Shown here: positions 1,399 to 60,049 of the stretch, one piece after another
Layout: each line of letters opens with the position of its first letter
How positions within the stretch are numbered: position 1 is the first letter of the stretch
IMG/VR virus record: IMGVR_UViG_3300042549_004104
Span: 199,353 to 263,352 of that record
Origin: a virus
Lineage: Duplodnaviria; Heunggongvirae; Uroviricota; Caudoviricetes
Length of the DNA stretch: 64,000 nucleotides
Strand: one strand, 5' to 3'
The notes under the pieces: generated by a model
The model's input: only the letters and a program-made list of their open reading frames with translations
Databases searched by the model: none
Told to the model about the DNA's origin: nothing
Made by a program: the position numbers and the translations under genes

Positions 1399-2130
1399 AT
1401 GAAACTAACAGAATTTAACTTAAAACCAATTACAGTTGCTAAAAAAGCACTCAAGGAACACTTCAATACTGAATTGAGACTTGACAAATTTAGCCTGTAT
1501 GAAACAGAACGTATGATGCGTAAGGTCAATGGCCTTATGAATGAAATGCGCCAAAAGAACAGTGCCCAGAGCACTGAAAAGAATCCAGCATACTTAAAAC
1601 TAGTATTCATGGAACAAGCATTAAATCATCACTATGGTGAACTTAAGGCTCTTCCACTATACAATACACGTATTGTTTTAGAGAACGAAGAAGTTGAAAA
1701 GTCACAAGTTATTTTGGCTGCACAAGAAATGGTTGACTCTATTCAGAAAATGGTTGAACAAGTTTCTGACATGTTAGTTAAAGAACTACCAGCAGTTGTT
1801 GACGGTGTTAATAGTGAAGTTGGTACAAATGAAGGCCAACAGTTTGAACAACAAACTACAGAAGCATTGACAAGTCTACAAGCCGCATTGACACAAGCTA
1901 AAGGTACATTGAACGGCGCCCTAGGATCTATTACAGGTCAAGGTGGTGATATGTCTATGCCAGGTTCTGATATGGGAATGGACATGGGAATGGGTGATGA
2001 AGATGGCATGGGTGCAGGCGAAGACATGGCTGACTTGGGCGGTGAAGAACCCGACGATGAACTATCAGACCTTCCAACTGAACCAGATGAAGAAGAAGCA
2101 GTAGCTGGCGTAGGTCGCCCGACTCGTTAA
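1399..2130 (+). CDS. Acidic coiled-coil protein, possible prohead core/scaffold component
   Basis: ATAAATA at 1366-1372 plus SD AGGAA; N-terminus MKLTEF; helical middle; D/E/G/M-rich tail. Confidence 0.45.
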   Translation: MKLTEFNLKPITVAKKALKEHFNTELRLDKFSLYETERMMRKVNGLMNEMRQKNSAQSTEKNPAYLKLVFMEQALNHHYGELKALPLYNTRIVLENEEVEKSQVILAAQEMVDSIQKMVEQVSDMLVKELPAVVDGVNSEVGTNEGQQFEQQTTEALTSLQAALTQAKGTLNGALGSITGQGGDMSMPGSDMGMDMGMGDEDGMGAGEDMADLGGEEPDDELSDLPTEPDEEEAVAGVGRPTR

Positions 2131-2131
2131 A

Positions 2132-2461
2132 ATGAGACTGTACGAATTTGTTGAAGATGATCCACTACGTGTTAAGTTGCAGGCTGTTGCCAACCAACTT
2201 AAAGACAGAGTAGTGGATTCAGGTAATACAATAAGTACAGACGAATTATTGAATTATTTCAAAGATAATGAGATAGGCATTGACAAAGCAGATTTATTTG
2301 ATATTGTCAAAAAAGAACCTTTAGTAAACATCATTCATAATGTAAATAAAGATGAAGTTATATTCAAGGGTCAAGAAGGTACAGAACAATTAGGCAAGCC
2401 TCCAAAGCCAAGCGATAACAAAAAAACTCTCTCTACAATGGCTAAACGAGCGATGAGTTAA
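2132..2461 (+). CDS. Hypothetical protein with capsid-targeting-like N-terminus (MRLYEFVED)
   Basis: 109 aa ORF coupled to the previous gene. Confidence 0.6.
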   Translation: MRLYEFVEDDPLRVKLQAVANQLKDRVVDSGNTISTDELLNYFKDNEIGIDKADLFDIVKKEPLVNIIHNVNKDEVIFKGQEGTEQLGKPPKPSDNKKTLSTMAKRAMS

Positions 2462-2470
2462 CCAAAACTA

Positions 2471-2499
2471 TTGTACTACAGAGAAATTTGTAGTACAAT
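2471..2499 (+). promoter_or_regulatory. Sigma70-like promoter embedded in an inverted repeat
   Basis: TTGTAC-17 bp-TACAAT; ATTGTACTACA (2470-2480) and TGTAGTACAAT (2489-2499) are perfect inverted repeats. Confidence 0.55.
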
Positions 2500-2505
2500 T
2501 GCCAT

Positions 2506-3192
2506 ATGTACACTCCCGATAAATTTAAATACGAACCTATCAAACGTATTGACACACCAGAAGGACGCAGATATGCAACACCCGATGGTAACAAACTTCC
2601 CTCAGTCACTACAATATTAGATGCTACTAAATCAGAAGAATCTAAACAAGCATTACAAAACTGGCGTAAACGAGTAGGTGCAGTTCAAGCACAAGCAATC
2701 ACTACAGAAGCCGCAGGACGTGGCACACGTATGCACAAGTGGCTTGAAGATTATGTTAAAACAGGTACTATAGGAACACCCGGATCTAATCCCTACAGTA
2801 TTCAAAGCCATCTGATGGCTACAAGCATCATTACTCAAGGTTTAGTGAAGTGTAATGAATACTGGGGTACAGAAGTTCCTTTATATTTCCCCGCAGTTTA
2901 TGCTGGTACTACTGACTTGTGCGGAGTACATGATGGAAGTGAAGCTATCATGGATCATAAGCAATCTAATAAGTTGAAAAAACGTGAGTGGATTGATGAT
3001 TACTTTGTTCAGTTAGCCGCATACGCTACTGCACATAATGAAAAGCATGGCACAAAGATACGTAAGGGTGTTATTTTTATGTGTACCGCAGACAATATAT
3101 ACCAGGAATTCATCATTGAGGGTAATGAATTTGACAGTTGGCAAGACAAATGGTATCAAAGACTAGAACAATACTATAGTCGGTTCGTTTAA
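2506..3192 (+). CDS. PD-(D/E)XK exonuclease (Cas4/RecB-like phage exonuclease)
   Basis: LPSVTTIL, RGTRMH, YAGTTD, IMDHKQS and QLAAYA motifs. Confidence 0.85.
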   Translation: MYTPDKFKYEPIKRIDTPEGRRYATPDGNKLPSVTTILDATKSEESKQALQNWRKRVGAVQAQAITTEAAGRGTRMHKWLEDYVKTGTIGTPGSNPYSIQSHLMATSIITQGLVKCNEYWGTEVPLYFPAVYAGTTDLCGVHDGSEAIMDHKQSNKLKKREWIDDYFVQLAAYATAHNEKHGTKIRKGVIFMCTADNIYQEFIIEGNEFDSWQDKWYQRLEQYYSRFV

Positions 3193-3229
3193 TTGTTGAT
3201 AAATAATATAATCAAATAAAGATTATATT

Positions 3230-4258
3230 ATGGCTATTGTACAAATATCAAAAATCATTCATAGAACGGGCGCAAATATTGATTTGCCTCAATTAGATAT
3301 TGGGGAAATAGGTTTTGCTACTGACGAACAACGTGTATACATAGGCAATGATCCTGCAATTGTTCCACCTCTAGGATCTACTACTCAAACAGAAATTCTC
3401 ACAGCTAGTTCTACCCTTGATTTTTCTAGAATTCAAGGATCTCAAAATGCTAGTGCAAATTTTTCAACATTAGAAAACGGACAATTGATAGGTGTTAATG
3501 TAGCGGCTAATATTGCTACGATTGTTAATGTCGGCGGTACAGCAGGTGGAGAAATTAATTTAGGTGCTGTAGGTAATGTTAAACTCAACGGCGGAACTAA
3601 TGGATATTTCCTTCAAACTGACGGCGCTGGTAATCTAGCATGGACTAGTTCTGTAGGTAATGTAACGATTCCGGGTACACCTGGTGGTTCAAGCACTCAA
3701 CTGCAATTTAACAATGCAGGTAACTTTGCCGGTGACAGTCGTTTAACATTTAATGTTGCAACAGGTATTATGACCATGGCCGGTAACTTGAATGCTACCG
3801 GTAATATCAATGCATCAAATATATATGGTCCTATACAAGGTGTCATCGGTGCAACAACACCTAACTTAGCAACATTCACCAGCGTAACAGTTAACAATAA
3901 TTTAATTGCTACTGGTAACGTGACTGCCGATATTGTAATATCAACAAACAATAATGCCGGTGAAAACTTTAAAGTTGGTGATGACATTTGGATTGGTGAT
4001 ATCAATCTTTCTGACACAATGCAACTTAAAGGTGTAGCAGATTCAGCAAATGCATATATTGTATTTGGTGATAGTGATACTAACGCATTAGGTCGTAGTG
4101 GGACAGGCCCATTAACATATGATGGTGACTTTGAAGCATCAGGTAATGTAACTGCAAACAATATAGTATTAAGCACATGGTCTATGTTTGCAAACGTTGA
4201 TGGATTGTATGCTACTGATGGTAGTAATACGTACTCCATCAATATGACCCAACTCTGA
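3230..4258 (+). CDS. Tail/baseplate fibre-like protein with Mtd-N-like N-terminus
   Basis: LPQLDIGEIGFATDEQRVYIG N-terminal motif; G/N/T-rich beta repeats; ATAAATA at 3199-3205. Confidence 0.6.
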   Translation: MAIVQISKIIHRTGANIDLPQLDIGEIGFATDEQRVYIGNDPAIVPPLGSTTQTEILTASSTLDFSRIQGSQNASANFSTLENGQLIGVNVAANIATIVNVGGTAGGEINLGAVGNVKLNGGTNGYFLQTDGAGNLAWTSSVGNVTIPGTPGGSSTQLQFNNAGNFAGDSRLTFNVATGIMTMAGNLNATGNINASNIYGPIQGVIGATTPNLATFTSVTVNNNLIATGNVTADIVISTNNNAGENFKVGDDIWIGDINLSDTMQLKGVADSANAYIVFGDSDTNALGRSGTGPLTYDGDFEASGNVTANNIVLSTWSMFANVDGLYATDGSNTYSINMTQL

Positions 4259-4290
4259 TAAATATATAGTACATTCTTAATTCTGAGAAT

Positions 4291-4354
4291 TTATGCGGTC
4301 CCCACCGCGTAGTGGCTAGAACCCACACACATATAAGGAGAAAACAAATGGGAC
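4291..4354 (+). promoter_or_regulatory. Structured 5' leader (two hairpins, possible pseudoknot onto the start codon)
   Basis: TTATGCGG/CCGCGTAG stem 4291-4312; GTGG/CCAC 4312-4326; GTCCC 4298-4302 complementary to GGGAC 4350-4354. Confidence 0.45.
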
Positions 4355-5487: not shown

Positions 5488-5504
5488 TCAGTTTTTACTG
5501 AAAC

Positions 5505-5531
5505 AAAAAAGCCGCATTATGCGGCTTTTTT
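5505..5531. terminator. Bidirectional intrinsic terminator
   Basis: AAAAAAGCCGCA-tta-TGCGGCTTTTTT between convergent genes. Confidence 0.85.
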
Positions 5532-5939: not shown

Positions 5940-5971
5940 GTTATGATTTATCATAACATGACTTGTCCATA

Positions 5972-7342: not shown

Positions 7343-7350
7343 TGTTTACC

Positions 7351-9258: not shown

Positions 9259-9308
9259 TTTGTTATCCGTTTACTTAGTATTTAGTATAAAAGTATCACC
9301 TTTAAAAC

Positions 9309-9337
9309 TTGACAATAATTGGACAATCATATATAAT
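9309..9337 (+). promoter_or_regulatory. Consensus sigma70 (early-type) promoter
   Basis: TTGACA (9309-9314), 17 bp spacer, TATAAT (9332-9337). Confidence 0.85.
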
Positions 9338-9361
9338 AATGAAATCGTAACAGGAGTAACT

Positions 9362-20576: not shown

Positions 20577-20603
20577 AGATAAATATTACATAGGAATAAC
20601 AAA

Positions 20604-21206
20604 ATGAAAAGCCTTCGTCACTACCTAACAGAATCTGTCAGAACATATCGTTACACGATTAAGATCGCAGGTGACTGTGATAAAAATTTCTTAGATATGT
20701 TCAAACATAACCTATCTAAATTTGATCCAGTTAAAATAGATGATCCAAAAACTACACCTATTCAGAAAGATCCATATGGATTTCCTGAATTAGAAAATCA
20801 GTCTATCACTATTATTAAATCAGAATTCAGATATCCAGCAACAGAGCCAATGATTCAGCAACTAGCACAAATGCTAGGATGTCAAATCAATCGTGTCAGA
20901 GTAGTTACAACTGATTATGATGAGAGCATCAATAGTGAAGCAGAAGGCTATGCGAATGAAATGAAAGATGAACCATTATTGTTAAAAACAGAGTTAGAAG
21001 ATAATGGTAAAGAAGCAAGCAAAGAATACGCAAATCAATACTTAGACAAAGTTATGCCTAAGAAACCAAGTATTGATATCCCTTTTGACGGTAAGAAAAC
21101 TCCAATAGCTCCTAACAAGAGTAAAGAAGGTATCAATACGATGAGTCCTATGAGTAAAATAAATCGTCCACAAAAACCAGCTACAGGAGCTAGTGCATCA
21201 AAATGA
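20604..21206 (+). CDS. Hypothetical head-associated protein (MKSLRHYLTES start)
   Basis: Late box 20579-20585, SD AGGAA; capsid-targeting-like N-terminus. Confidence 0.55.
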   Translation: MKSLRHYLTESVRTYRYTIKIAGDCDKNFLDMFKHNLSKFDPVKIDDPKTTPIQKDPYGFPELENQSITIIKSEFRYPATEPMIQQLAQMLGCQINRVRVVTTDYDESINSEAEGYANEMKDEPLLLKTELEDNGKEASKEYANQYLDKVMPKKPSIDIPFDGKKTPIAPNKSKEGINTMSPMSKINRPQKPATGASASK

Positions 21207-34342: not shown

Positions 34343-34510
34343 AGTATTCTCCTTTTGTCGAGCCGAGTTCTCATAAAACTCAAGTTTATTTAAAGGCTAC
34401 TTAGGGAGTTATACTGTGATATTCTTAAACTAAAATTAAGAGATAAATATAAGGCTAAGGTCAGAATTTGTAAATCCTACCGCAAAAGTTATAATAAGAT
34501 AAATATATAC

Positions 34511-35143
34511 ATGAGTAAAAACCCTTCAGACGAATTTTTTGACAATATTGACTTTCCTAGCATTATTGAAACTATTAAAGGTATATTCACCAGCGACGGC
34601 ACCATGAATACTTTATTAGATTTTGAACGTGTTTTGGACGAAAGTGATTTATATGCATATAAAAACTGGGAATTGGGTGAGTTAGTAGCAGGACCTGACG
34701 TTGAAAGATACCAAGTTAGTTGCATGTTTATGTTCCCTGCAAAACTAATGCCTGATCCTAGAGGAGCAAAAAGATTGCTTTCTACTGGTTGTAGCCTTAA
34801 GTTTAAGAAAACAAAAATTAAGGTTCCGGTAGAAATAAAAGATCCTGGTGACTATAAGCCAGGGACACATTTTCCTAAAATGATAGACCGTGAAGTATGG
34901 TTAGTTCGCATTACTATGCCTAAAGAACTTATGAATGATATCCGTGAAGGATCAATTGACTTAGCAGGTCAAACTATTAACTTAGAAGAATTAGACACTG
35001 CATATGATGACGATTTAGACAAAGAAGGTACTGAGGATGAAAACGAAAATCAAGGTCAAGAAGCAGGTGCAGATTTAGGAATGGGTGGCCTGGGTGCAGC
35101 TCCAATGCCCGCAGGTCAAATACCATTAGGTGGAGGAATGTAA
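34511..35143 (+). CDS. Hypothetical protein
   Basis: 210 aa; ATAAATA 34499-34505, 5 nt before the ATG. Confidence 0.75.
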   Translation: MSKNPSDEFFDNIDFPSIIETIKGIFTSDGTMNTLLDFERVLDESDLYAYKNWELGELVAGPDVERYQVSCMFMFPAKLMPDPRGAKRLLSTGCSLKFKKTKIKVPVEIKDPGDYKPGTHFPKMIDREVWLVRITMPKELMNDIREGSIDLAGQTINLEELDTAYDDDLDKEGTEDENENQGQEAGADLGMGGLGAAPMPAGQIPLGGGM

Positions 35144-35682
35144 TGAAAAACATTCTTAATGAAGGGTTTGATTATCACGATTTAATAAATCAATTAATAC
35201 CCGAAATCAAAGTTGACGAATATAGTGCTAAGATGGGCAGTGATGATGAGATTGTTACAATCAGTTTTACAGTCAAAGGTCGTCAAGTAGGGGAAGATTT
35301 AGTAGATTGGTTTGAGCGTGGGTATGATTATATATTGGATGCTCAAGTTAGTGATGGTGAAATTACTTCTGGAAAATATTTAGTGTTTGTAGAAATGAAC
35401 CGTAGAAGTTCTGTACCAGAAAGAATTTGTGAACTAATTGAAGATATGGTAACATTAACTGATTTACCATTAAAAGAATGGACTATTATCGTAAACGATG
35501 AAAAATATGATGCTGACATTGAACAATTAAAATCAGTTATTATTTTAAGTCCACATCAATATCGTTTAGAGAATGAAGAAGATTTAAATGAAATGCGTAA
35601 CTTGTCTGGTTTAGAGAAAAAGAAAATATTTGGTGAACCAGATACAGAATTAAAAAATTATTTAGCAAAGGCAGGTTTATAA
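35143..35682 (+). CDS. Hypothetical protein (MKNILNEG start)
   Basis: 179 aa, TAATG-coupled. Confidence 0.75.
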   Translation: MKNILNEGFDYHDLINQLIPEIKVDEYSAKMGSDDEIVTISFTVKGRQVGEDLVDWFERGYDYILDAQVSDGEITSGKYLVFVEMNRRSSVPERICELIEDMVTLTDLPLKEWTIIVNDEKYDADIEQLKSVIILSPHQYRLENEEDLNEMRNLSGLEKKKIFGEPDTELKNYLAKAGL

Positions 35683-36632: not shown

Positions 36633-37436
36633 ATGGATCATTACAAAACCCTGGGGGTAGCTAAAAACGCTACCCCCGATGATATTAAAAAAGCATATAG
36701 AAGATTGGCAGCAATACATCATCCTGATAAGGGTGGTGATACTGCTGAGTTCCAAAAAGTTCAACTAGCTTATGAAACACTAAGCGATTCACAAAAGAAA
36801 CAAGAATACGATAATCCAAACCCGTTCGGGCAGGGTATGCCAGGTGGAGGATTTCCCGGTGGATTTAGTTTTCATATGAATGGAGTGAATATCAATGATA
36901 TTTTTGGAACGATGTTTGGAGATGGATTTGCTAGGGGAGGAGCATTTAAGCCTCAACCACCTAGTTACCGTACTGTCGTTAATCTTACATTAGAACAAGT
37001 TTATAATGGTGGAGAACAAGTACTTCAATTTAATGACCACACTGGACCCAAAGTCATAAAGATAGAAATACCCAAAGGTGTAGAGAATGGACAATCTATG
37101 AGATATGATAATCTTATTAAAGATAGTATTTTATTGGTTGAGTTTAGAGTTCATGCACATCAAAATTTTGAACGTCAAGGTCCTCATCTTTATTCCGTAC
37201 ACGAAATAAATGTGTTGGATTTAATTGTGGGTTCATCATTTACATTCAAAACTATTTCAGGTAAAACAGTTGATGTTACAGTGCCGCCCAAATCTCAACC
37301 CGGATCTAAACTTAGACTAATTAAGTCTGGATTACCGATTAATAATGATTTTGGTGACCAATATATATTACTAAAACCATTTATTCCTGATATAATAGAT
37401 GAACGCATACTTAATGCAATAAGTAACCATAAATAA
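36633..37436 (+). CDS. dnaJ: DnaJ/CbpA-type co-chaperone (no zinc finger)
   Basis: J-domain with HPD, G/F-rich linker, DnaJ C-terminal domain. Confidence 0.9.
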   Translation: MDHYKTLGVAKNATPDDIKKAYRRLAAIHHPDKGGDTAEFQKVQLAYETLSDSQKKQEYDNPNPFGQGMPGGGFPGGFSFHMNGVNINDIFGTMFGDGFARGGAFKPQPPSYRTVVNLTLEQVYNGGEQVLQFNDHTGPKVIKIEIPKGVENGQSMRYDNLIKDSILLVEFRVHAHQNFERQGPHLYSVHEINVLDLIVGSSFTFKTISGKTVDVTVPPKSQPGSKLRLIKSGLPINNDFGDQYILLKPFIPDIIDERILNAISNHK

Positions 37437-37454
37437 TTTTGAAAGAAAAATATA

Positions 37455-39734
37455 ATGAATACACCTGAAATTGAAGCAATCATTGAAAAGGCTGTTTCAT
37501 TGGCTAAGGAACGTAGCCATGAATACTGTACGATTGAGCACTTATTGTTGTCACTGGTTACACATCAACCTTTTAAGAACACACTTGATAATTTTGGTGT
37601 AGACACCGAGACAATGATTAAAGAACTGACTACGTATGTGACTAATTTACGTGCGATACAAATTGAACCTGACGGTGACGAAATCCAACCAAGAAAAACA
37701 AATGCATTAGAACGTGTTATGAACCGTAGCATTACTCAAGTTTTATTTACAGGACGTAAGAATGTTACAACCATTGATTTATACATAAGCATAGCACATG
37801 AATCTAACAGCCATGCACATTACTTTTTAATGAAATATGGAATTAATAAAAACGAATTTGTTCCGTTCTGGCAAAAACATTATAAAAATACCGAAACTAC
37901 ATCTAAACTTTCTGATAGCCAAGCAAATGAAATTTTAGAAGAATATACAATAAATCTCACTAACTTAGCTAAAGATAATAAACTAGAACCTTTAATTGGA
38001 CGTAGCAATGAAATACATGATATTTTAAACGTTCTTGCAAAAAAGTTTAAATCAAATGTATTGTTGGTAGGAGATCCAGGTGTAGGTAAAACTGCTATAG
38101 CTGAAGGTTTAGCGCAAGCAATCAATGATAAAATTGTACCAGAATTTTTATTAGGGCACGAAGTATATTCCATTGAAGTTGGTAATTTGCTTGCAGGTAG
38201 TAAATATCGTGGAGATTTTGAAGAAAAGATTAAGGCAATACTAGAAGCACTTATTACCAAAAAGAAAGCAATATTATTCATTGATGAAGCACATACAATG
38301 AAGGGTTCGGGTAATGCTACTGGTGGCAGTGTTGATTTTGCTAATATGATTAAACCGGCTATCACCAAAGGCAACTTGAAAGTGATTGCGTCAACTACTT
38401 GGGAAGAGTACTACGAATCATTCGAAAAGGATCGTGCGTTAATGCGTAGGTTCTATCGTGTTTCAATTGATGAACCCAACAAAGAAGATACAATTAAGAT
38501 TTTACGTGGTTTGACTCCTAGACTCAATGAGTTCCACGATATCAATATTACTGATGAAGCAATTGAAGCCGCGGTTGAATGCGCTACTCGCTATATTCAC
38601 GACCGAAAGAATCCTGACAAATCAATTGATTTGCTAGATGCAACTTGTGCGAAACAGAAAGTCATGGGTTATAGTAATATTGACATTACTAAAGAATTGG
38701 TTCACAAGCAAGTTGAAAAGATGGCAAATGTTCCGGCTGATAAACTGAACAATGATAATTTTGAACGAGTTAATGCACTAGAAACTAACATCAAAGATAA
38801 ACTGTATGGTCAAGAGGAAACAGTTGATAAAGTACTTGAACGAGTTTATGTGAGTTTTGCGGGCATTGGTAATGAAAAGAAACCACTAGCAAGTTTCTTG
38901 TTCTTAGGCCCAACTGGCACAGGTAAAACAGAGTTGGCACGATTACTTGCTAAGAATCTTGATATGAATCTAATCAAGTACGATATGAGTGAATACAGTG
39001 AGAAGTTTAATGTATCAGCGTTGTTAGGTGCGCCTCCGGGATATGTAGGTTTTGGTGATAGCAGCCTTGGTGGTGGCAAACTTATAAATGACTTGAGCAA
39101 GAATCCTCATTCAATATTGTTGTTTGATGAAGTTGAAAAGGCTCACCCAGATATCTTTAACATTTTCTTGCAATTACTTGATGATGGTAAAGTAACCGGT
39201 ACAAATGGTAAAGAAGTTAATGCTAAAAATTGTATCATTATCATGACCAGTAACTTGGGTAGTGCTGATAGTGAGAAATCAATGATTGGTTTTGGTTCAC
39301 AAGAAAAATTAGGTGAGGATGACAAAGCACTAAAAGAATTCTTCAAGCCTGAATTCAGAAATCGTATTGACCTGATTTCCAAGTTCAATAAATTAGATAT
39401 GTTGGCAATCAAAAAAATCGTAATTAAATTTACTGATGACTTGAAGAAATCTCTTAGAGATACACATGAAATTGTTCTTAACTTAAGTGAATCAGTTGTT
39501 GAATATCTTGCTGAAAAGGGATATGACAATAAAATGGGTGCAAGACCATTATCACGTAAGATTGACGAATTGATTCGTGTACCATTGAGTAAGAAGATTC
39601 TATTTGAACGTATCAAAAATAGTATCGTTAATGTAGATGTTCAAAATGATGAAATTGTATTTGACGTACAAAAGAAATTAACAGCAGAAGTAGGCGAAGA
39701 TGGCATTATTAAAATTACCACAGAAACGGAATGA
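37455..39734 (+). CDS. clpA: ClpA-like AAA+ unfoldase
   Basis: Clp N-domain (EHLLL); Walker A GDPGVGKT and GPTGTGKT; IGF loop at 39285-39293; GARPL. Confidence 0.9.
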   Translation: MNTPEIEAIIEKAVSLAKERSHEYCTIEHLLLSLVTHQPFKNTLDNFGVDTETMIKELTTYVTNLRAIQIEPDGDEIQPRKTNALERVMNRSITQVLFTGRKNVTTIDLYISIAHESNSHAHYFLMKYGINKNEFVPFWQKHYKNTETTSKLSDSQANEILEEYTINLTNLAKDNKLEPLIGRSNEIHDILNVLAKKFKSNVLLVGDPGVGKTAIAEGLAQAINDKIVPEFLLGHEVYSIEVGNLLAGSKYRGDFEEKIKAILEALITKKKAILFIDEAHTMKGSGNATGGSVDFANMIKPAITKGNLKVIASTTWEEYYESFEKDRALMRRFYRVSIDEPNKEDTIKILRGLTPRLNEFHDINITDEAIEAAVECATRYIHDRKNPDKSIDLLDATCAKQKVMGYSNIDITKELVHKQVEKMANVPADKLNNDNFERVNALETNIKDKLYGQEETVDKVLERVYVSFAGIGNEKKPLASFLFLGPTGTGKTELARLLAKNLDMNLIKYDMSEYSEKFNVSALLGAPPGYVGFGDSSLGGGKLINDLSKNPHSILLFDEVEKAHPDIFNIFLQLLDDGKVTGTNGKEVNAKNCIIIMTSNLGSADSEKSMIGFGSQEKLGEDDKALKEFFKPEFRNRIDLISKFNKLDMLAIKKIVIKFTDDLKKSLRDTHEIVLNLSESVVEYLAEKGYDNKMGARPLSRKIDELIRVPLSKKILFERIKNSIVNVDVQNDEIVFDVQKKLTAEVGEDGIIKITTETE

Positions 39735-42961: not shown

Positions 42962-42980
42962 ATTAGTTAAACTCAAAGAA

Positions 42981-43007
42981 AAGGGCTGTCAAACGACAGC
43001 CTTTTTT
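42981..43007 (+). terminator. Intrinsic terminator
   Basis: AAGGGCTGTC-aaac-GACAGCC followed by a T run; late box ATAAATA 43009-43015 follows. Confidence 0.8.
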
Positions 43008-43019
43008 CATAAATACTCT

Positions 43020-51468: not shown

Positions 51469-51513
51469 TATTGTATAAATTATTACCAAACTAGCAACAA
51501 TCTAAATATCTAT

Positions 51514-52197: not shown

Positions 52198-52242
52198 TAA
52201 ACTTTAAAAAGCGATAAATACATGATACATGGAATTCGTCTT

Positions 52243-54669
52243 ATGAAAATCAACACGCTTTTAGAATATACATCACCTAGCAGTCAGCCTAACCAAGCCG
52301 GGGGACAAGCCCCTGAGTTCGGCCGTGATCCTAACGTATTAGAAACTACTACTGGATCAGGTAGTGTTGCTACTGTTAGTAATCCAGTCGGTGGAATGCA
52401 AAGACGCAATAGTAAAGGTAGTATGTTTCAAGGTATCAAAACAAGCAAGAAGTTCGTTAACAGTCCGGTCACGGAAGATGAAATCAGTGAAGAACAACTA
52501 TTAACAAAAGAATTACGCAAAGAACTATTCAAAAGAGCTAAAGACCGTGACATAGGTAACAGACCAGAAAACCATGATATCATGTCAAAAGAATCAGATC
52601 CAGAATATGATGACGAAGCTGGTATGGCCACAACAAACTTACATACTGCATTAAGAGCAGTTGAAGGATTAAACAAAGTTATAGGTCCTAATGAGAATCT
52701 TCCTGAATGGGTACAAGAGAAAATTGCAATCGCAAATGATTACTTAGTTACATGCTGGGACTATATGATTAGTCAACATGAGCAAGGTCGTAAGTATGAA
52801 GTAGATGAAAATCAAGATTGGATGAAAGATATAGCAGCCATGGCTCATAAAATGGCTCCACAAGATAAAATGCGTGAGAGACAGGCACAACGTGACGCAC
52901 AAGCAAAAGCTGAACAACAACAAAGATTGCAACAAGATGTTGAAAATCTACCAGACTTAATATCACAATATAATGACATGGAAGCTGAGTATGAGTCAAT
53001 GGGCGGTAGTAATTGGCAGTATGCTGACCGTGAACAAAATCTAAGTGATAAAGAACGTAAAGCACGTGGTATGGAAACTTCCATGAGACATTTGGCTAAT
53101 AGAATTCATGCTGCCAAGAAAGCAAGCGAAGGATTAGCAGAATCTAAACCTGATTTTGGTAAGATGTTTGACAAGAAAATTGGTAAACATAATAAAGCAG
53201 TAGTTAAAACTAAAAAAGAAATTGGCACTAGAGTTGCTGATATCGGCGCCGGTGGCAAAGAATATAATGTTAAAACTGATAAAGAGTGGGACAAACAACA
53301 AGGTGTGGCGGAAGGCTCTGAATCAAGCGACAATCTAGTATCAACACTAAATTCGTTTGGGTACTACTCTGATAACGGCGATATTTATGTAAATGATAGT
53401 GGTGATAAGATTGCCCGTCAGGGTTCTAACTGGAAACATCAAAGTGGTAAACGTGGTATTGGCGCTGAAGAATTGGGTGAATTTTTAGGCTCAAAGCAAG
53501 GTGTGGCGGAAGGCTATCAGTTAGATGAAGGTGCCGTTGAAACTATTACAGCATTAGTCAAGAAGATTCCTGGTATTGGCAAATATTATCAAATGGCTCA
53601 ACAATACAAGCCACAATTGATTGAAATTCTAAAGACCAGCAAGTCTGGTAAAGAAGTTAAACAAAAGATGGAACAATTGGCAGCAGGTCAGTCGGCTACG
53701 GTCGCCGAATCAGGTATGATGAAACAACTTGGTGGCTTGGCAGTAGGTGGCGGCAGCATTTTATCTACAATGTGGATGAATGCTATGGGAATGATTGATG
53801 GTGTATTGGCACACGCAGCCGCTGGTGAAGTAGGAGGCGCAGTAGCATCTGGTAGTATCCTAGGATTGATTCCTGTAACACTAATGTTATTTGCGGCAAT
53901 GTTGTTATTCAAAGGATCAAAACAAAGTAGCGATGAAAAAGCACAAGCATTTCAAGCACAACGTGGTCAACAAGGTGTGGCGGAAACAGCACCGGATTCA
54001 GATAATCGTCAATGGTCTAACAAAGATATGGAAAGGCTACGAGTCGCTACCAAAGACTTTGATGATATAATGGCCAGCGATGCTTATGGACGCAGGATCA
54101 ATCAAGACGTAACAAAACAAAGATTAAAAACTAAACCTATAGCAGGACCTAAAGGTGTATTACCCGAGCAAGGTATGGGCGAAGGCACAGAACAACCTGT
54201 GAGTTTTAGAGAAATGGTCAATGTAGTTGACCAGCATTATCCAAAATACTATGCTGAACTATCTGGCAGTGATATTTCTGATAAACAATTTGAAAGAGCC
54301 ATTGTCAATGCTTATAAGAAAATTATGCAGAAGCAAGGCATGGCGGAAGGTATGGAAGGATCAGTTGTGTTCAGTGGTACAGGTGATAATGGCGGCAAGT
54401 ATGAAATTATTCAGTCTGGTCCCAATGACTTCATGATCCACGCCAACGGTAAACACATTGATTCTTATGATAGTCTACAACGAGCCATGAGTGTGCTACA
54501 AAATGAAGTGCCAGGATTGAAGAAAACTGTAGACGAAGAAAGCAAAGGTCTATGGGCTAACATACATGCTAAACGTGAACGTATTAAACAAGGTAGTGGT
54601 GAAAAGATGCGTAAGCCAGGTAGTACAGGAGCACCAACCGCAGATGCATTAAGAAAGTCAGCAAAATGA
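52243..54669 (+). CDS. Modular polyprotein-like protein with QGVAEG junction repeats
   Basis: Likely start MKINTLLE at 52243; ATAAATA 52214-52220; about a dozen unrelated segments joined at x-x-E sites. Confidence 0.75.
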   Translation: MKINTLLEYTSPSSQPNQAGGQAPEFGRDPNVLETTTGSGSVATVSNPVGGMQRRNSKGSMFQGIKTSKKFVNSPVTEDEISEEQLLTKELRKELFKRAKDRDIGNRPENHDIMSKESDPEYDDEAGMATTNLHTALRAVEGLNKVIGPNENLPEWVQEKIAIANDYLVTCWDYMISQHEQGRKYEVDENQDWMKDIAAMAHKMAPQDKMRERQAQRDAQAKAEQQQRLQQDVENLPDLISQYNDMEAEYESMGGSNWQYADREQNLSDKERKARGMETSMRHLANRIHAAKKASEGLAESKPDFGKMFDKKIGKHNKAVVKTKKEIGTRVADIGAGGKEYNVKTDKEWDKQQGVAEGSESSDNLVSTLNSFGYYSDNGDIYVNDSGDKIARQGSNWKHQSGKRGIGAEELGEFLGSKQGVAEGYQLDEGAVETITALVKKIPGIGKYYQMAQQYKPQLIEILKTSKSGKEVKQKMEQLAAGQSATVAESGMMKQLGGLAVGGGSILSTMWMNAMGMIDGVLAHAAAGEVGGAVASGSILGLIPVTLMLFAAMLLFKGSKQSSDEKAQAFQAQRGQQGVAETAPDSDNRQWSNKDMERLRVATKDFDDIMASDAYGRRINQDVTKQRLKTKPIAGPKGVLPEQGMGEGTEQPVSFREMVNVVDQHYPKYYAELSGSDISDKQFERAIVNAYKKIMQKQGMAEGMEGSVVFSGTGDNGGKYEIIQSGPNDFMIHANGKHIDSYDSLQRAMSVLQNEVPGLKKTVDEESKGLWANIHAKRERIKQGSGEKMRKPGSTGAPTADALRKSAK
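53299..54351 (+). repeat. Dispersed in-frame direct repeats CAAGG(T/C)(G/A)TGG(CG/GC)GAA(GG)
   Basis: Copies at 53299-53317 and 53497-53515 (identical 19-mer), 53971-53985, 54169-54186 and 54334-54351; related copy at 59561-59577. Confidence 0.9.
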
Positions 54670-55109
54670 GAATAAAAGACATAGTACAAGAAAATTTAGT
54701 AGCTGGTATAGTTGGTCATGAAATTAAAAAATTTCTTGACGAACCATTTCCTAAAGATAAAAAAGACGTAGAAGAAGACTGGCAAAAAGTCAATAAAAAA
54801 GATAAGACTGATGGAATGAGTAACAAAGCAGTTAAAGCATATCGTAGAGAGAATCCCGGTAGCAAATTAAAAACTGCTGTAACTAAAAAGCCAAGTAAGT
54901 TAAAGAAGGGTTCTAAAGATGCTAACCGCCGTAAGAGTTTCTGTGCTAGAATGAGTGGCATGAAAAAATCACGTGCTAGTGCTAAAACTAAACGAGATCC
55001 AGATAGCCCAATCAATAAAGCATTACGTAGATGGAATTGCGAATCTGTAGAACAAATGCAAGAATTAGTAATGATAGCAGAGCAATATTTAAAAGAGAAT
55101 AAGCAATGA
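54666..55109 (+). CDS. Basic phage protein (RRKSFCARM family) with capsid-targeting-like start
   Basis: MRIKDIVQE start; RRKSFCARMSG...DSPINKALRRWNC motif recalled from other T4-like phages. Confidence 0.65.
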   Translation: MRIKDIVQENLVAGIVGHEIKKFLDEPFPKDKKDVEEDWQKVNKKDKTDGMSNKAVKAYRRENPGSKLKTAVTKKPSKLKKGSKDANRRKSFCARMSGMKKSRASAKTKRDPDSPINKALRRWNCESVEQMQELVMIAEQYLKENKQ

Positions 55110-56653
55110 AAATTACAGAACTACACGAAGGCGCAGAACCAAAATTACCGGGTGCAGTAAGTGGCATCAAAATCATGACACCGCAACAATTTGTTAGTCA
55201 AGCAGGTAAAGAATTAAATGAGTTTGCACCAGTTGGTGGTGATGACCGTGAGCCAGACGAAGAAGAAATTCTACGTCAACTGGCTGCACAATGGTGGAAT
55301 GGCACAGAACAACAAATGGCCAAGGCACAACGCACACTGGCAGCAATGGGCTGGGAAATTGGTCCCGATGAGTCCGGCGATGACGATGCTGGTGTGTACG
55401 TGTACCGTATAGGGGACGAGGATGGTCGTGTTACTATACCGTTTGCTCACAGTGATTTAGAATTAAATGAAGCAACCAAGCTACCAGCACAAAGTCGTGA
55501 ACTAGGTGGGCAAGAGTTCCAAGACTACATGAAGCGCATCGTAGGTACTCCTAAAATTAACAAAAAGACCGGTGAAGTTGAAAAACAAAAAGATAGAATC
55601 AATAAGAAAACAGGTGAGATTATTCCCGGTGACGAGAAATATGTTTCTGGAAAAACTAAAACTGACAAGTACAAAATGCCTTATATACATCGTAGTAGTG
55701 CAATTGAGTACTATGACGAAGCTGGTAAACGATTCAAAGAAGAAGCAGTTATTGATGCAATAAAAACTCGTCCTAAAAACCTACTAAAGCAAAACGAAAA
55801 GATGAAGCACAGTAACGGTGACTTAGAACAATTCTTTAACATTGGCTTTGCCGCATTAACCGGTGTTGCAGTTGATGAATCAACTAACAAATTAATCATT
55901 GTTAATACATGTCCGGGTGCTGGTAGTTGTAAAGTTAGCTGTTTCCAATTAGGCGGCAACAAAGTTATGTTTAAAGGACCTTGGTTAAGCGATGGTAGAA
56001 TTCTTACATTCTTATTGAATGATCCAAGTGGATTCTTTAGTACATTAAGTACGGAGATTGCAAAAGAAGAAAAACTCGGCCAAAAGGGTGGATATGCCGT
56101 ATCTATTCGTTGGCATGATGGTGGGGACTTCTTTAGTCCTGAATATCTAGATTTAGCATTGAAAATGGCAGCGCAACATCCAAATACTAAGTTCTATGCT
56201 TATACTAAAATGGCAGGTGCCGCGCTTGCACAAAAACCAAATAACTTCATTATTAACTGGAGTGAAGGGGCTCACACCAGCCAAGAAAAACAAGTTAAGG
56301 CACAAGATCCTAATTTGACAACAACAAAAAATAGTCGCATTGTACCTGAAAAATTATTCTGGGATCTATTAAAGAAAGACGAAAAGGGTAATTTAGATAA
56401 AGAAGGTGCTGATGAAAAGGGCAAGGGCGGTCGTTGGGTAACCAGAGACGATAATGCTACCCGAGAATTAAAACAGCGTTTGGCGCAAACATATGGATTA
56501 AGTTCAAATTCAATATTAAACTATGATGAGTACATGGCAAAAAGAAATTCAATTCCAGCCGGTATGAAGTACAACGTTATTGTTGCCCCAGGCGAAGGTG
56601 ATGTAAGTGCAAACGATCCTGGCGTATTATCTACATTATTATTAAGACATTAA
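55106..56653 (+). CDS. Gp88-like (radical-SAM-related) domain protein with an inserted N-terminal cassette
   Basis: MKITELHE start; TCPGAGSCKVSC, IRWHDGGDFF and FYAYTK motifs; insert bounded by ELNE codons. Confidence 0.6.
   Translation: MKITELHEGAEPKLPGAVSGIKIMTPQQFVSQAGKELNEFAPVGGDDREPDEEEILRQLAAQWWNGTEQQMAKAQRTLAAMGWEIGPDESGDDDAGVYVYRIGDEDGRVTIPFAHSDLELNEATKLPAQSRELGGQEFQDYMKRIVGTPKINKKTGEVEKQKDRINKKTGEIIPGDEKYVSGKTKTDKYKMPYIHRSSAIEYYDEAGKRFKEEAVIDAIKTRPKNLLKQNEKMKHSNGDLEQFFNIGFAALTGVAVDESTNKLIIVNTCPGAGSCKVSCFQLGGNKVMFKGPWLSDGRILTFLLNDPSGFFSTLSTEIAKEEKLGQKGGYAVSIRWHDGGDFFSPEYLDLALKMAAQHPNTKFYAYTKMAGAALAQKPNNFIINWSEGAHTSQEKQVKAQDPNLTTTKNSRIVPEKLFWDLLKKDEKGNLDKEGADEKGKGGRWVTRDDNATRELKQRLAQTYGLSSNSILNYDEYMAKRNSIPAGMKYNVIVAPGEGDVSANDPGVLSTLLLRH
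55210..55470 (+). repeat. 12 bp direct repeats AGAATTAAATGA flanking a 249 bp in-frame segment
   Basis: Copies at 55210-55221 and 55459-55470. Confidence 0.8.
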
Positions 56654-56666
56654 AGGGAGAATTAAA

Positions 56667-56786
56667 ATGAAAACTTACACATTTACTGCACTATGTAAAA
56701 GTGGTGCTTATAAAACAACAACATTCCAAGCATCAGGATATTTAAATGCAAGAGAAAAATTAACTCAGTTCATTGAAAATAATTAA
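56667..56786 (+). CDS. Small hypothetical protein (39 aa)
   Basis: SD AGGGAGA; MKTYTFTALCKSG...FIENN. Confidence 0.5.
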   Translation: MKTYTFTALCKSGAYKTTTFQASGYLNAREKLTQFIENN

Positions 56787-56840
56787 AATGAACAGAAATT
56801 TATTTGAATTCTATTCACGTTACAAGGGAAATCCACCAAA

Positions 56841-57281
56841 ATGTTATCAGACAGTTTAAAAGTATTATTGGCTTCAACAGAAGCATTTTCATTGAAGTCA
56901 CGCAACTTTCATTGGAACATTGAGGGCAGTAACTTTCCACAATATCATGAATTTTATGATTCATTATACAGTGAATCATATGGTACAGTAGATAAAATTG
57001 CTGAATATATTAGAGTGTTGGGTAACTATGCACCAGCAAGTTTGTCTCGCTATACTGAGCTATCAATCATTCAAGACCAAACAAAAATTCCACGTGCTGA
57101 ATTAATGTTTTTAGAAACTCAACAAGATATTGAAAAGATGGTTGAGCTTGTTGTTAATATGTTTGATGTTGCTACACAAGAACGTCAGCAAGGTATTGCT
57201 AATTACATGGCTGAATTACAAGACTTCTATGGTAAAAAAGCATGGATGGTTCGTAGCATTCTTAAAAAAGAACGTGAGTAA
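56841..57281 (+). CDS. dps: Dps/ferritin-like DNA protection protein
   Basis: NFHWNIEG and YHEFY...DKIAEYIR ferroxidase motifs; KAWMVRS C-terminus. Confidence 0.88.
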   Translation: MLSDSLKVLLASTEAFSLKSRNFHWNIEGSNFPQYHEFYDSLYSESYGTVDKIAEYIRVLGNYAPASLSRYTELSIIQDQTKIPRAELMFLETQQDIEKMVELVVNMFDVATQERQQGIANYMAELQDFYGKKAWMVRSILKKERE

Positions 57282-57288
57282 ACACTTT

Positions 57289-58317
57289 ATGCGCCTTGAT
57301 GAAATTTCATCCTCACTCAAAAAGTATACAGTAACTGTAAAGGTTGATGGTTCTTCCATCAAAACAACAATTCACGCTGAGTCACAAAGTCAAGCAAGAC
57401 AGTTGCTAGTAAAGTTATACGGCAAAGACAATGTTCAGTCTATCAACGAATCACTTCAACCTATACCTAAAATTACTGATGAGATGGCTCTTAAACAATT
57501 TACACCATTGGGTGATTTTGAAAAGCCAGGGCCATTTAGAGGCGTTGATAAAAGATTAATACCCCATCCAACTAATCAACTAAAGACACAAAGATTTTTA
57601 GAAAAAACTCCCTATGATTTTAGATTGTTCTTTAGTAACATTCCGGGTACAGGTCGTTATAGTGAATACGGACCTATGAAGCCTGAGGTTATTCAACAAG
57701 TATTTGGTAACCAAGCACAACAAATTATTGATGGTAGTCAAGATGCTATCACTGTTGTATTTGTCGGTAACAAAGGTGATAGCAAAGTAATGATGACACC
57801 ATGGATCATGGCACATAGATTTGGTCATGCTATTCAAGCAGGTCATCGTAATACTGGTAGTAGCAGGTCTGGTGCATGGCCTGAAGCAGAACAATATTTC
57901 TTTAATACAGTTAATCAAGTGATAGAACGATGCTATGGTAAAGTAGCAAAAGACCAATACGGTCGTCCTGCACGAAGCGGTGTGTCATGGAATCTAACAC
58001 CAGAATACAATGCATTATTTAACGCTATTGGCACACAACGTAGCAGTCGTAGTAATGAAATTAAGCGACCATATGAATTCTTGTATGAATTATTTGCACA
58101 GTATCTAGGTACAGGAACTATTACATTAAATCCACTACCAATTAACTTGGGTTATGGTCGTAAAGCATGGGGAAACCCAAGTAAGTATCTCAATTTAAAG
58201 CCAGAGTTTCGTGACGAAGATACGAGACAATATGAATCGCAAGGTATCGGTGATGATTTAACCGAGTATTTTGCAGAAGTTTTAAGAGGTTGTGTAGGTA
58301 ACATATATGTTATGTAA
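57289..58317 (+). CDS. Two-module hypothetical protein with zincin-like HRFGH motif
   Basis: Likely start MRLDEI at 57289; junctions SINES and ITDE; WIMAHRFGHAI. Confidence 0.6.
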   Translation: MRLDEISSSLKKYTVTVKVDGSSIKTTIHAESQSQARQLLVKLYGKDNVQSINESLQPIPKITDEMALKQFTPLGDFEKPGPFRGVDKRLIPHPTNQLKTQRFLEKTPYDFRLFFSNIPGTGRYSEYGPMKPEVIQQVFGNQAQQIIDGSQDAITVVFVGNKGDSKVMMTPWIMAHRFGHAIQAGHRNTGSSRSGAWPEAEQYFFNTVNQVIERCYGKVAKDQYGRPARSGVSWNLTPEYNALFNAIGTQRSSRSNEIKRPYEFLYELFAQYLGTGTITLNPLPINLGYGRKAWGNPSKYLNLKPEFRDEDTRQYESQGIGDDLTEYFAEVLRGCVGNIYVM

Positions 58318-58320
58318 TTT

Positions 58321-59022
58321 ATGATTTTATATACTTTAATAGTAACACACATTACAATCATTTGCGTCACACTTTTCTTACACAGAGGTCAAGCACATAA
58401 AGGATTAATATTTCATCCTATACTAAGTCACTTCATGCGATTTTGGTTATGGTTGACAACAGGTATGGTTACTAAGCAATGGGTAGCTATACATCGTAAA
58501 CATCACAGATATAGTGACATAGAAGGTGATCCACATAGTCCACATGTATATGGGATTATGAGAGTATTTTTTAAAGGAGCAGTACTATACCATGACGCAT
58601 CAAAAGATAAAGATATGGTTGATTCATATGGTGTTGGCACTCCTGATGATTGGATTGAGCGCAACTTATACAGTAGTCACTCCAGACTTGGCATTGGCAT
58701 TCTCTTTTTGTTCAACATCATCATCTTTGGTTGGGCTGGCGCCATAATATGGGCTATACAAATGATATGGATTCCATTCTGGGCCGCCGGAGTAATCAAC
58801 GGCATTGGACATTGGTGGGGGTATCGTAATGGTGAAACTAAAGATAAAAGTAGGAACATTAGTCCTTGGGGCATTATTATTGGTGGTGAATGTCTGCACA
58901 ATAATCATCATTTGGAACCCGCAAATCCTCGTCTTAGTCGCCGCTGGTTTGAATTTGATATAGGATGGATGTATATTAACATATTCAGTTTTTTAAGATT
59001 ATTGAAAGTAAGAACAATATGA
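58321..59022 (+). CDS. Delta-9-type fatty acid desaturase
   Basis: His boxes LHRGQAH, HRKHH and HNNHH; GDPHSP; hydrophobic segments. Confidence 0.92.
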   Translation: MILYTLIVTHITIICVTLFLHRGQAHKGLIFHPILSHFMRFWLWLTTGMVTKQWVAIHRKHHRYSDIEGDPHSPHVYGIMRVFFKGAVLYHDASKDKDMVDSYGVGTPDDWIERNLYSSHSRLGIGILFLFNIIIFGWAGAIIWAIQMIWIPFWAAGVINGIGHWWGYRNGETKDKSRNISPWGIIIGGECLHNNHHLEPANPRLSRRWFEFDIGWMYINIFSFLRLLKVRTI

Positions 59023-59111
59023 ACCCAAATGATTACCCCGTATACCCTGAGGACGATGGATTTGACAAGTTTCGAAATCCGTATAGTCCCGTAATGAACA
59101 CACTACCTTAG
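59019..59111 (+). CDS. Small acidic/Pro-rich peptide (30 aa)
   Basis: ATGA overlap with the desaturase stop; MNPNDYPVYPEDDGFDKFRNPYSPVMNTLP. Confidence 0.4.
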   Translation: MNPNDYPVYPEDDGFDKFRNPYSPVMNTLP

Positions 59112-59187
59112 GACCTTTGCGTTATAAAGTGTGGCCCGGCTGCTGGGCTAAGAGAACAATTCGCTACTGTAATCTTTAAAGTGAGCA
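59108..59187 (+). ncRNA. Candidate structured RNA motif (family not identified)
   Basis: GC-richer intergenic island with stems CTTTG/TAAAG, GCCCG/TGGGC and GCTACT/AGT-G-AGC. Confidence 0.4.
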
Positions 59188-59200
59188 TAAATACTATATT

Positions 59201-60049
59201 ATGAGAGCAAACGATTTTACCACCGAATCAGCAGTTGAAGACCTGAAGAACAAACTTCCTAGCCTTAAAAATACTAGTTACGATACCATTGACGAATTGA
59301 TGCAAAAAATCAGCCGTCGTTATAAACTGACTGGTAAAAAATTGCATGATTTATTTGTACACAAATATGGTCACACTCCAGACACGTGGATTAAGAAAAT
59401 AAAAAATAGATTAGGTGAAGAAGATATAACAGAAAGCGAACACGCTCATTATAGAAATTATTCAACATCCGATTTATTGCGTATGATTAAAACTATTAAA
59501 AGAGATGAAATTGGATTAAAAATCATAACTTCCATAACTAATGAAATTATGCGTAGAAAACAAGGCATGTCGGAAGGACCTAAAGAAGTTATAGGACTAG
59601 CAAAGTTTGCTATTGGTGGCGGAATACCCGGAGGACAACTTCCAGCTGATATATTAGGTGAAAAAGATGTGACAAAGGATTTGTCGGAAGACGTACAAGG
59701 ACCTGATGAAGTACAACAAATTAAAGACTTTATTAAATGGTCAATGAAAACATTGAATATTAAAACTAAACCCAAATTCACATTAAGTAAGAACACAGAA
59801 CAAGCACAAGCTGGTCATCATACTGGCGTACACAGTGGTGATAGAATTTGGGTATATATCGGCAATCGTAATCTAATAGATATTTTCCGTACTATATTCC
59901 ATGAATTGGTACATCAACGTCAAAGTGAACTTAACATGATTAAAGACGGTGACAGTTATCCTGGCTCACCAATCGAAGCAATGGCTGATATGATGGCGGG
60001 TAAGTATATTAAGATATACGGTAAAGAACACCCAGAAATCTTCCAATAA
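59201..60049 (+). CDS. Modular protein ending in a zincin-like HExxH domain
   Basis: MRANDFTTES start; junctions ITES, QGMSEG and DLSED; RTIFHELVHQRQ...IEAMAD. Confidence 0.65.
   Translation: MRANDFTTESAVEDLKNKLPSLKNTSYDTIDELMQKISRRYKLTGKKLHDLFVHKYGHTPDTWIKKIKNRLGEEDITESEHAHYRNYSTSDLLRMIKTIKRDEIGLKIITSITNEIMRRKQGMSEGPKEVIGLAKFAIGGGIPGGQLPADILGEKDVTKDLSEDVQGPDEVQQIKDFIKWSMKTLNIKTKPKFTLSKNTEQAQAGHHTGVHSGDRIWVYIGNRNLIDIFRTIFHELVHQRQSELNMIKDGDSYPGSPIEAMADMMAGKYIKIYGKEHPEIFQ

Follow-up and report, generated by a model that had tools for sequence, protein, structure and literature searches.

The internal head proteins of bacteriophage T4 all join the core of the prohead through a capsid-targeting sequence (CTS) at their N-termini and lose it to the protease gp21, and the gp21-related proteases of giant phages likewise cut after Glu (PMC5694885). 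The T4 CTS goes back to Mullaney and Black (1996, as cited in PMC9958956, PMC5694885, and PMC3012670), and the CTS of internal proteins II and III (IPII and IPIII), about 10 amino acids (aa) long, brings even GFP into the T4 core (PMC9958956). The CTS concept is already known, being established for T4 and its internal protein (IP) loci, and the hyperplastic IP loci of T-even phages combine one conserved address peptide with fast-changing cargo that is swapped among relatives (PMC3012670). In phiKZ-like phages, head cargo is also cut after Glu, at A/S/G-x-E sites, by gp21-related proteases (SPN3US gp245 and phiKZ gp175), and there are substrates with multiple cleavage sites and paralogs with conserved N-termini; however, the propeptides of their ejection proteins are mostly longer than 100 residues, no short tag is common to many unrelated families, and both the protease family (S80) and the cleavage motif differ from those described here (PMC5694885, PMC10052503). 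Here we report a family of short, shared N-terminal peptides, referred to below as tags, on otherwise unrelated proteins of an uncultured phage. They were noticed in a stretch of 64,000 nucleotides (nt) (the window; bases 199353 to 263352 of the 359,563-bp IMG/VR virus record IMGVR_UViG_3300042549_004104, which is rated complete), and from their sequences they are probably capsid-targeting and cleavage propeptides of the T4 type.

The source is a jumbo phage of about 360 kb that belongs to a freshwater clade distant from T4. Its tail sheath shares approximately 46% identity with the sheaths of Agrobacterium phage Atu_ph07, Sinorhizobium phage Phosso, and Pseudomonas phage PA5oct. A megablast search with a 2037-aa open reading frame (ORF) gave no match to a cultured phage at the DNA level, a 33-nt tag query run in distant mode gave no match and no cultured phage with the exact tag DNA, and in the literature we found no description of such a tag for this clade or for PA5oct. 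Approximately 420 genes were called genome-wide by a simple procedure based on ORFs and ribosome-binding sites. The phage has a T4-like head module with a gp21-family protease, in the order portal, methyltransferase-like gene, 74-aa tagged protein, 276-aa protein, protease, scaffold-position gene, and major capsid protein. The protease, encoded at genome 90475-91110 on the minus strand, is a Peptidase_S77 member (PF03420, 96.4 bits) with 34% identity to T4 gp21, PHROG matches were obtained for both portal and protease, and the major capsid protein aligns to T4 gp23 and carries LSE/S (the slash marks a cleavage position, known or proposed, here and below) where the gp23 propeptide ends. Like T4, this phage combines a gp21-family protease with a gp23-like capsid, a gp20-like portal, and gp55-type late promoters.

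The initial annotation had proposed 12 N-termini in the window as a capsid-targeting-like family, and all 12 ATG starts and peptides were found where it had placed them. The six-residue motif stated there, M-[KRN]-h-x-[ED]-h (h, hydrophobic; x, any residue), is present in eight of these (the ORFs starting at window positions 1399, 2132, 11949, 43020, 54666, 55106, 57289, and 59201) and absent from the other four (20604, 21421, 35143, and 52243). Across the whole genome the motif opens 14 of 416 genes but follows only 3 of 1674 internal Met codons (odds ratio [OR], 19; p 5e-8, an optimistic value, as discussed below). Shuffling the N-termini column by column, a control that retains position-specific composition, including the Lys/Arg bias at position 2, yielded 1.9 +/- 1.4 matches against the 14 observed, and for the nine-residue pattern M-[KRN]-x-x-[ED]-h-h-x-E it yielded 0.11 against 7. 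In the part of the genome outside the view of the initial annotation, the counts were 6 of 355 starts versus 3 of 1325 internal Met codons (p 0.004). The nine-residue pattern is similarly concentrated at gene starts in two relatives, G001 (364 kb, with terminal repeats; 6/500 starts versus 0/2040 internal Met codons) and G002 (303 kb; 6/321 versus 1/1571). In Atu_ph07 the motif family is weak, with 14 strict matches where 5.0 are expected. A looser rule that had also been proposed, h-x-E within about 12 residues of the start, was dropped as a membership criterion: it holds for 12.3% of starts and 14.4% of internal Met codons, so that members claimed on it alone receive no statistical support. 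We regard the original observation as partly confirmed: the family exists, but it is less extensive and more sharply defined than had been claimed. In total, about 16 to 18 genes per genome carry a tag (the strict 14, 52243, 21421, and two doubtful ORFs), 5 or 6 of them outside the window.

Two classes of tag can be distinguished in logos built from 102 (class A) and 52 (class B) distinct N-termini of the clade. Class A reads M-R(86%)-A(68%)-N/T-E(93%)-F(76%)-I/L/V-T/S-E, and the next residue is in most cases A, S, V, or G. Class B reads M-K/N-I/F-x-E-L-x-E-G and is found mainly in the Gp88-like family and the family of 52243. Because of the way in which the pattern was built, Glu is invariant at position 9 (class A) or 8 (class B); small residues come next. 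Positions 2 to 7 of class A (R-A-x-E-F-I) are as conserved as the putative cleavage triplet. Conservation begins at the ATG, the DNA upstream being unrelated, and the tag is accordingly an element of the extreme N-terminus.

The resemblance to T4 is close. ipII and ipIII of T4 both start MKTYQEFIAE/A (read from NC_000866), T4 gp24 starts MAKINELLRE/S, and the ORF at T4 position 125502 starts MELITELFDE/D. A regular expression in the T4 register matches only five T4 proteins, namely IPII, IPIII, gp24, the 125502 product, and gp61.1, so that in T4 patterns of this type single out, with high specificity, head proteins processed by gp21. We take the 125502 ORF to be Alt, judging from its sequence rather than from its annotation. 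The last of the five matches, gp61.1 (NC_000866 18966-19130), is a 54-aa hypothetical protein encoded beside the primase gene, and its start, MKTFKEFIKE, is nearly that of the IPII/IPIII CTS. Like the T4 CTS, the tag is a peptide of 8 to 10 residues that opens late proteins otherwise unrelated to one another, at their extreme N-terminus. The core of both is E-[FL]-[IL]-x-E, and its last residue is the Glu that precedes the cut made by gp21-type proteases. In contrast to T4, the class A register is one residue shorter (M-R-A-N-E-F-I-T-E versus M-K-T-Y-Q-E-F-I-A-E, with the same E-F-I-x-E core), the tagged genes are about threefold more numerous (approximately 16 to 18 versus approximately 5), large enzymes and multi-module proteins are among the carriers (a LysM plus GH19 hydrolase and ParB-like, Gp88-like, and DUF6321 proteins), and there is a second class, MKIxELxEG, as well as internal QGVAE/G linkers. 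A further difference is that the tag is known here from sequence alone. Owing to the extra residue in the T4 tag, a fixed-register position weight matrix (PWM) derived from this phage missed the T4 IPs.

The tag is portable between unrelated proteins. As the initial annotation had stated, the bodies behind it are unrelated in all-against-all BLASTP comparisons, the one exception being a weak similarity between 11949 and a tagged gene outside the window. When IMG/VR was scanned with the Gp88-like protein, 248 related loci were found, of which 80 were analyzed, and in these approximately 80 loci the orthologs retain the tag, the linker behind it is hypervariable, and N-terminal regions have been exchanged between tag flavors. 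In this clade set, 253 of 2927 genes are tagged, with bodies that fall into 37 clusters. Exact MRANEFITE, searched as a DNA pattern, occurs in at least 100 IMG/VR stretches; in 74 of the 81 analyzed it stands at the first ATG of an ORF, and the bodies behind it form 21 unrelated clusters. Domains are shuffled as well: the body of the tagged gene at genome position 326508 lies within the G001 ortholog of 43020, and in G001 the GH19 domain of the protein encoded at genome position 324874 is fused to an 11949-type ParB-like N-terminal domain. The arrangement recalls the T-even IP loci, from which it differs in that the cargo genes, instead of forming one locus, are dispersed across the genome, include polyprotein-like chains, and have whole domains exchanged behind the tag.

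Judged by their promoter units, the tagged genes are late genes. The T4 late-promoter core ATAAATA lies within 60 nt 5' of 63 same-strand gene starts, and when late units were defined by walking upstream along co-directional genes to a heading ATAAATA, 15 of 16 tagged genes fell into such units, compared with 191 of 423 genes overall (p 5e-5). Conversely, 85 genes belong to units that open with an early promoter of the sigma-70-like type, and not one of them carries a tag. This supplies the comparison with early genes that the initial annotation had suggested. Tagged genes are thus associated with a TATAAATA-type late promoter in a genome that encodes a gp55-like late sigma factor (E 2e-5). 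The spacing between ATAAATA and the start codon is bimodal, with 22 genes, including that for the portal, at 4 to 7 nt and lacking a Shine-Dalgarno sequence, and approximately 23 genes at 17 to 22 nt. The short-spacing class implies that some late mRNAs may be leaderless or nearly so.

PA5oct, a cultured distant relative with the same order of head genes, is the only relative in our set whose GenBank record carries virion flags, 93 of its 461 proteins having been flagged by electrospray ionization tandem mass spectrometry (ESI-MS/MS) (PMC7318152). Its motif family numbers 11 where 2.0 are expected, and 7 of the 12 proteins matched by the regular expression are flagged as virion proteins, compared with 93/461 (20%) overall (hypergeometric p 0.004). 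Tag-like starts of virion proteins include MKINDIITEG in EST35_0150, MKIKDILVES in EST35_0238, and MRLDEIQS. The first of these is a 73-aa protein encoded between portal and protease and is orthologous to the 74-aa tagged protein of our phage; a 70-aa motif protein that is also in the virion is encoded beside dihydrofolate reductase, in a non-structural neighborhood. In PA5oct the homolog of 1399 is EST35_0237, which is present in the virion and has the start MFLKDVKITE. The virion lacks the product of the PA5oct scaffold-position gene, as it should if that product is a scaffold. No tag or N-terminal processing is described in the PA5oct paper (PMC7318152), and PA5oct shares few cargo genes with our phage. 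Overall, the virion enrichment in PA5oct serves as a proxy and is supportive but indirect.

A second type of candidate prohead-protease site occurs within tagged proteins. The 808-aa product of 52243 contains QGVAE/G-type linkers that part unrelated modules. Genome-wide, G-[VLMI]-A-E is found in only three proteins, two of them tagged (52243, with five sites, and 326508, with one), and the single site in 326508 coincides exactly with the edge of its mobile domain. Of the proteins in the clade set, 37 of 253 with a tag and 32 of 2674 without one contain [QKE]-G-[VM]-A-E (OR, 14; the counts are phylogenetically non-independent), several of the "untagged" proteins being products of mis-called starts or of genes truncated by contig ends. 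The residue that follows is Gly in 93 of 134 cases. Since V-A-E followed by Gly fits a cut after Glu, these data suggest that multi-module tagged proteins may be diced in the head.

Not all of the proposed members are equally convincing (Table 1). The case is strong, on sequence grounds, for 11949, 54666, 59201, and 2132 (class A or A-like) and for 55106 and 52243 (class B). The ATG of 11949 overlaps the stop codon of the head-tail adaptor gene, and its ParB-like identity, a function named in the initial annotation, is backed by PHROGs (E 6e-8). In some orthologs of 54666 the tag is joined straight to DUF6321, and elsewhere DUF6321 ends larger tagged proteins. For 52243, which lacks the six-residue motif and was rescued by its orthologs (which start MKISSLFEM, MKINNLLEN, MKITNLLEA, or MRFTEFISEN), the true start is that at 52243 and not the ATG at 52222. 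The Gp88-like assignment of 55106 was confirmed (PF17338, E 1.5e-21). Its orthologs start MKIRQLMEG, MNFKELFEG, MKITELYEG, or MKINDILES, and in their alignment residues 1 to 35 are conserved (majority fraction, 0.69 to 0.79), a linker of 44 to 115 residues is hypervariable (0.25 to 0.30), and the body is conserved again (0.74 to 0.88), immediately preceded by an invariant L-x-E/A-T at positions 120 to 124. The body also carries C-x5-C-x3-C and RWHDAGDFF motifs. An AlphaFold2 model of the Gp88-like protein built with 29 orthologs had a mean pLDDT (predicted local distance difference test) of 59.9 and gave no Foldseek match in the PDB at E <= 0.001, and phmmer found no match for 55106 or 43020 among PDB sequences.

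The remaining candidates are graded lower. 21421 is a probable variant member. 1399, 43020, and 57289 have the six-residue head only, and they are weaker candidates because in T4 that head also matches proteins not known to carry a CTS; nevertheless, the head is kept in their orthologs, and the Glu at residue 20 is conserved in two of the three. Four relatives have, in place of roughly the first 60 residues of the 57289 family, the class A tag MRATEFITEA joined straight to the conserved body. Two of the proposed members, 20604 and 35143, are not supported, and their N-termini look like ordinary conserved ones. The PA5oct homolog of 20604, a virion protein, starts MKSFRDYYDAS, without the Glu; in 65 orthologs of 35143, a conserved h-h-x-E-G-L-D-Y stands behind a prefix that varies in length. 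The enzymes predicted behind the tags were not all recovered: the match of 43020 to nucleotidyltransferases lies under the Pfam threshold, and no peptidase was found among the 12 ORFs. Outside the window, the product of genome position 324874 is a candidate capsid-borne cell-wall hydrolase.

Table 1. Tagged, candidate, and unsupported genes and associated sequence elements (window positions unless marked as genome positions; a slash marks the proposed cleavage position)
Feature	Coordinates	Strand	Remarks
Class A ORF, MRAGEFVTE/L, 241 aa	11949..12674	+	PWM score 15.8; ParB-like C-terminal region; orthologs start MRATEFITE
Class A ORF, MRIKDIVQE/N, 147 aa, DUF6321	54666..55109	+	Orthologs start MKASEFIIEA, MKATEFITEA, MRADEIINED
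Class A ORF, MRANDFTTE/S, 282 aa	59201..60049	+	Orthologs start MRANEFLRES, MRYTDFIFES, MRATEFLSES; ATAAATA 7 nt 5' of ATG
Class A-like ORF, MRLYEFVE/D, 109 aa	2132..2461	+	Translationally coupled to 1399-2130
Class B ORF, MKITELHE/G, 515 aa, Gp88-like (PF17338)	55106..56653	+	Ortholog alignment
Class B polyprotein-like ORF, MKINTLLE/Y, 808 aa	52243..54669	+	Five internal G-[VLM]-A-E sites; orthologs
QGVAE/G-type linkers in 52243 ORF	53302..53313; others near 53131, 53500, 53974, 54337	+	Candidate prohead-protease sites
Variant tag, 726 aa	21421..23601	+	Conserved 15-mer M-[DN]-F-[RK]-x-[LIM]-L-...-L-S-E/[GA]
Head-only tag, MKLTEF...ALKE (residue 20), 243 aa	1399..2130	+	PHROG "virion structural protein"
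Head-only tag, MNLTEL...FHKE (residue 20), 316 aa	43020..43970	+	ATAAATA 4 nt 5' of ATG
Head-only tag, MRLDEI, 342 aa	57289..58317	+	Motif fit; orthologs
Not supported, MKSLRHYLTES ORF	20604..21206	+	N-terminus conserved along with whole protein
Not supported, MKNILNEG ORF	35143..35682	+	Neither class A nor class B
Tagged gene, MRANEFISEG	genome 171635		Outside window
Tagged gene, MRATEFIRGL	genome 173020		Outside window
Tagged gene, MKLKEVIVEN	genome 197152		Outside window
Tagged gene, MRAREFIVED, 545 aa, LysM + GH19 (chitinase/lysozyme-like) domains	genome 324874-326511		Outside window
Tagged gene, MRANEFITEA	genome 326508		Outside window
Tagged 74-aa protein, MKLFEMYDAP	genome 92295	-	Just upstream of protease
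ATAAATA late-promoter-like copies	1366-1372, 20579-20585, 43009-43015, 52214-52220, 59187-59193	+	Motif search
Short-spacing ATAAATA examples	426-432 (ATG 433), 34499-34505 (start 34511), 43009-43015, 59187-59193

In the mechanism that we favor, the first 8 to 10 residues of tagged precursors would, late in infection, allow them to be co-assembled into the prohead's scaffolding core. The gp21-family protease would cut after the terminal Glu of the tag (h-x-E/) and also within the internal QGVAE/G linkers of multi-module proteins, and the mature cargo would remain in the head with the DNA, presumably to be delivered to the host. A predicted complex between the scaffold-position protein (365 aa) and the first 45 residues of a tagged protein had a score of 0.00, which counts neither for nor against binding. 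It seems rather unlikely that the peptide is only a propeptide recognized by the prohead protease or another protease, with head incorporation set by other parts of each protein. In favor of that account, the most strongly conserved feature is h-x-E followed by a small residue; the same type of site recurs internally as QGVAE/G, and the 35-aa N-terminal element of the Gp88-like family could hold the real targeting function. However, conservation of positions 2 to 7 goes far beyond the need of a three-residue site, the internal linkers differ in sequence from the tag, and the tag is kept whenever N-terminal regions are exchanged. In addition, the homologous T4 10-mer is sufficient for targeting (PMC9958956, PMC5694885).

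Codon usage bears on whether selection sees the peptide or the nucleic acid. In 81 de-replicated tagged genes of the clade, synonymous codons at E5, F6, and E9 of the tag are used at the genome average (GAA, 0.82 and 0.77 versus 0.77; TTT, 0.65 versus 0.63), showing that selection acts on the peptide and not on the DNA. Moreover, the amino acid pattern holds across relatives despite different codons, the ATG is the exact point at which conservation sets in, and tags are present on only 4 of the 22 leaderless-like genes. These observations make it very improbable that the tag acts as a nucleic acid element, whether in translation initiation, in leaderless mRNAs, or as a short DNA homology through which cassettes recombine, although AGA serves as the Arg2 codon in 94% of tags, compared with 29% in gene bodies and 39% at positions 2 to 9 of untagged genes, copies of the tag within one genome share up to 21 identical bases, and some tagged genes have ATAAATA just 4 to 7 nt 5' of the ATG. 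We attach equally little weight to the idea that the N-terminus is read by another machine, as a degron or adaptor for ClpXP or ClpS or by a chaperone, and sets timing or turnover. Genes for a DnaJ-like protein and for a large ATP-dependent protease or chaperone do lie in the window, but the tag matches the T4 CTS core, and we know of no phage-encoded Clp system of this kind in T4; the enrichment of PA5oct motif proteins in virions and the co-occurrence of the tag with prohead-protease-type sites likewise speak against such a role. Chance or compositional bias at N-termini (Lys/Arg at position 2, AT-rich codons) has almost no probability left as a general explanation. Position 2 of all genes is enriched in K, R, and A, and the loose h-x-E rule is not enriched, but the column permutations, replicated by the counts in G001 and G002, refute it for classes A and B; for 20604 and 35143 it may still hold.

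Several points weigh against interpretation of the tag as a T4-type CTS. For this uncultured phage we infer, rather than observe, core binding, cleavage, virion retention, and ejection. The motif was refined after the data had been seen, so that p-values from the phage's own genome are optimistic and the relatives and the unseen part of the genome give the fairer comparison. The six-residue head matches four T4 proteins, none of which is a known CTS protein and one of which we take, from its sequence, to be lysozyme. Five of the 12 motif matches in PA5oct are not virion proteins. PA5oct is also distant: tblastn with the tagged and claimed proteins gave four homologs, all weak, and few cargo genes are shared, making it impossible to transfer virion status ortholog by ortholog. 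Among the members themselves, 1399, 43020, 57289, and the G001 ortholog of 2132 (MRLYEFANSD, in which the head is kept and the Glu lost) lack a Glu at position 8 or 9, and the conserved N-terminal element of the Gp88-like proteins, at 35 residues, may do more than addressing. Finally, the AGA bias at Arg2 is a codon-level effect for which the peptide model has no account. We consider the first interpretation of the tag partly supported: the reusable, T4-CTS-like tag on diverse proteins that it proposed has held in every sequence test, whereas packaging, protease removal, and injection are conclusions drawn from these likenesses.

If the tag acts as in T4, nine residues would predict capsid-borne proteins of uncultured giant phages that probably enter the host with the DNA. 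T4 proteins of this class include anti-restriction and host-takeover effectors. Candidates flagged in this way are the LysM plus GH19 cell-wall hydrolase, the ParB-like, Gp88-like, and DUF6321 proteins, and the multi-module polyprotein. The shared features suggest that T4 and distant jumbo phages have kept a common mode of recognition between the CTS and the core of the prohead, in which case CTS-based protein packaging could be used more widely. A broader reading, which we put forward tentatively and would not yet call likely, is that the T4 address code (E-F-I-x-E) is ancient and extends far beyond T4-like phages, serving here as a general loader of dozens of unrelated enzymes and module chains, with the protease both removing the tag and dicing the chains at QGVAE/G into injected proteins. 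Were this true, the injected effectors of uncultured phages could be detected through the tag, from sequence alone.

Three further features were observed. Directly 5' of the late-promoter-like motif and the ATG of 43020, a G+C-rich hairpin followed by a T-run (window 42980-43008) resembles a terminator, and because of its placement we argue that a longer, TTG-started ORF from 42900 is not real. The DnaJ-like (J-domain) protein and the 759-aa ATP-dependent protease- or chaperone-like protein (phrog_4871, E 2.5e-230) are encoded at window 36633-39734, among structural and replication genes. In PA5oct, a ClpP-like protease subunit (MK797984.1, 180349-181020) carries the virion ESI-MS/MS flag.

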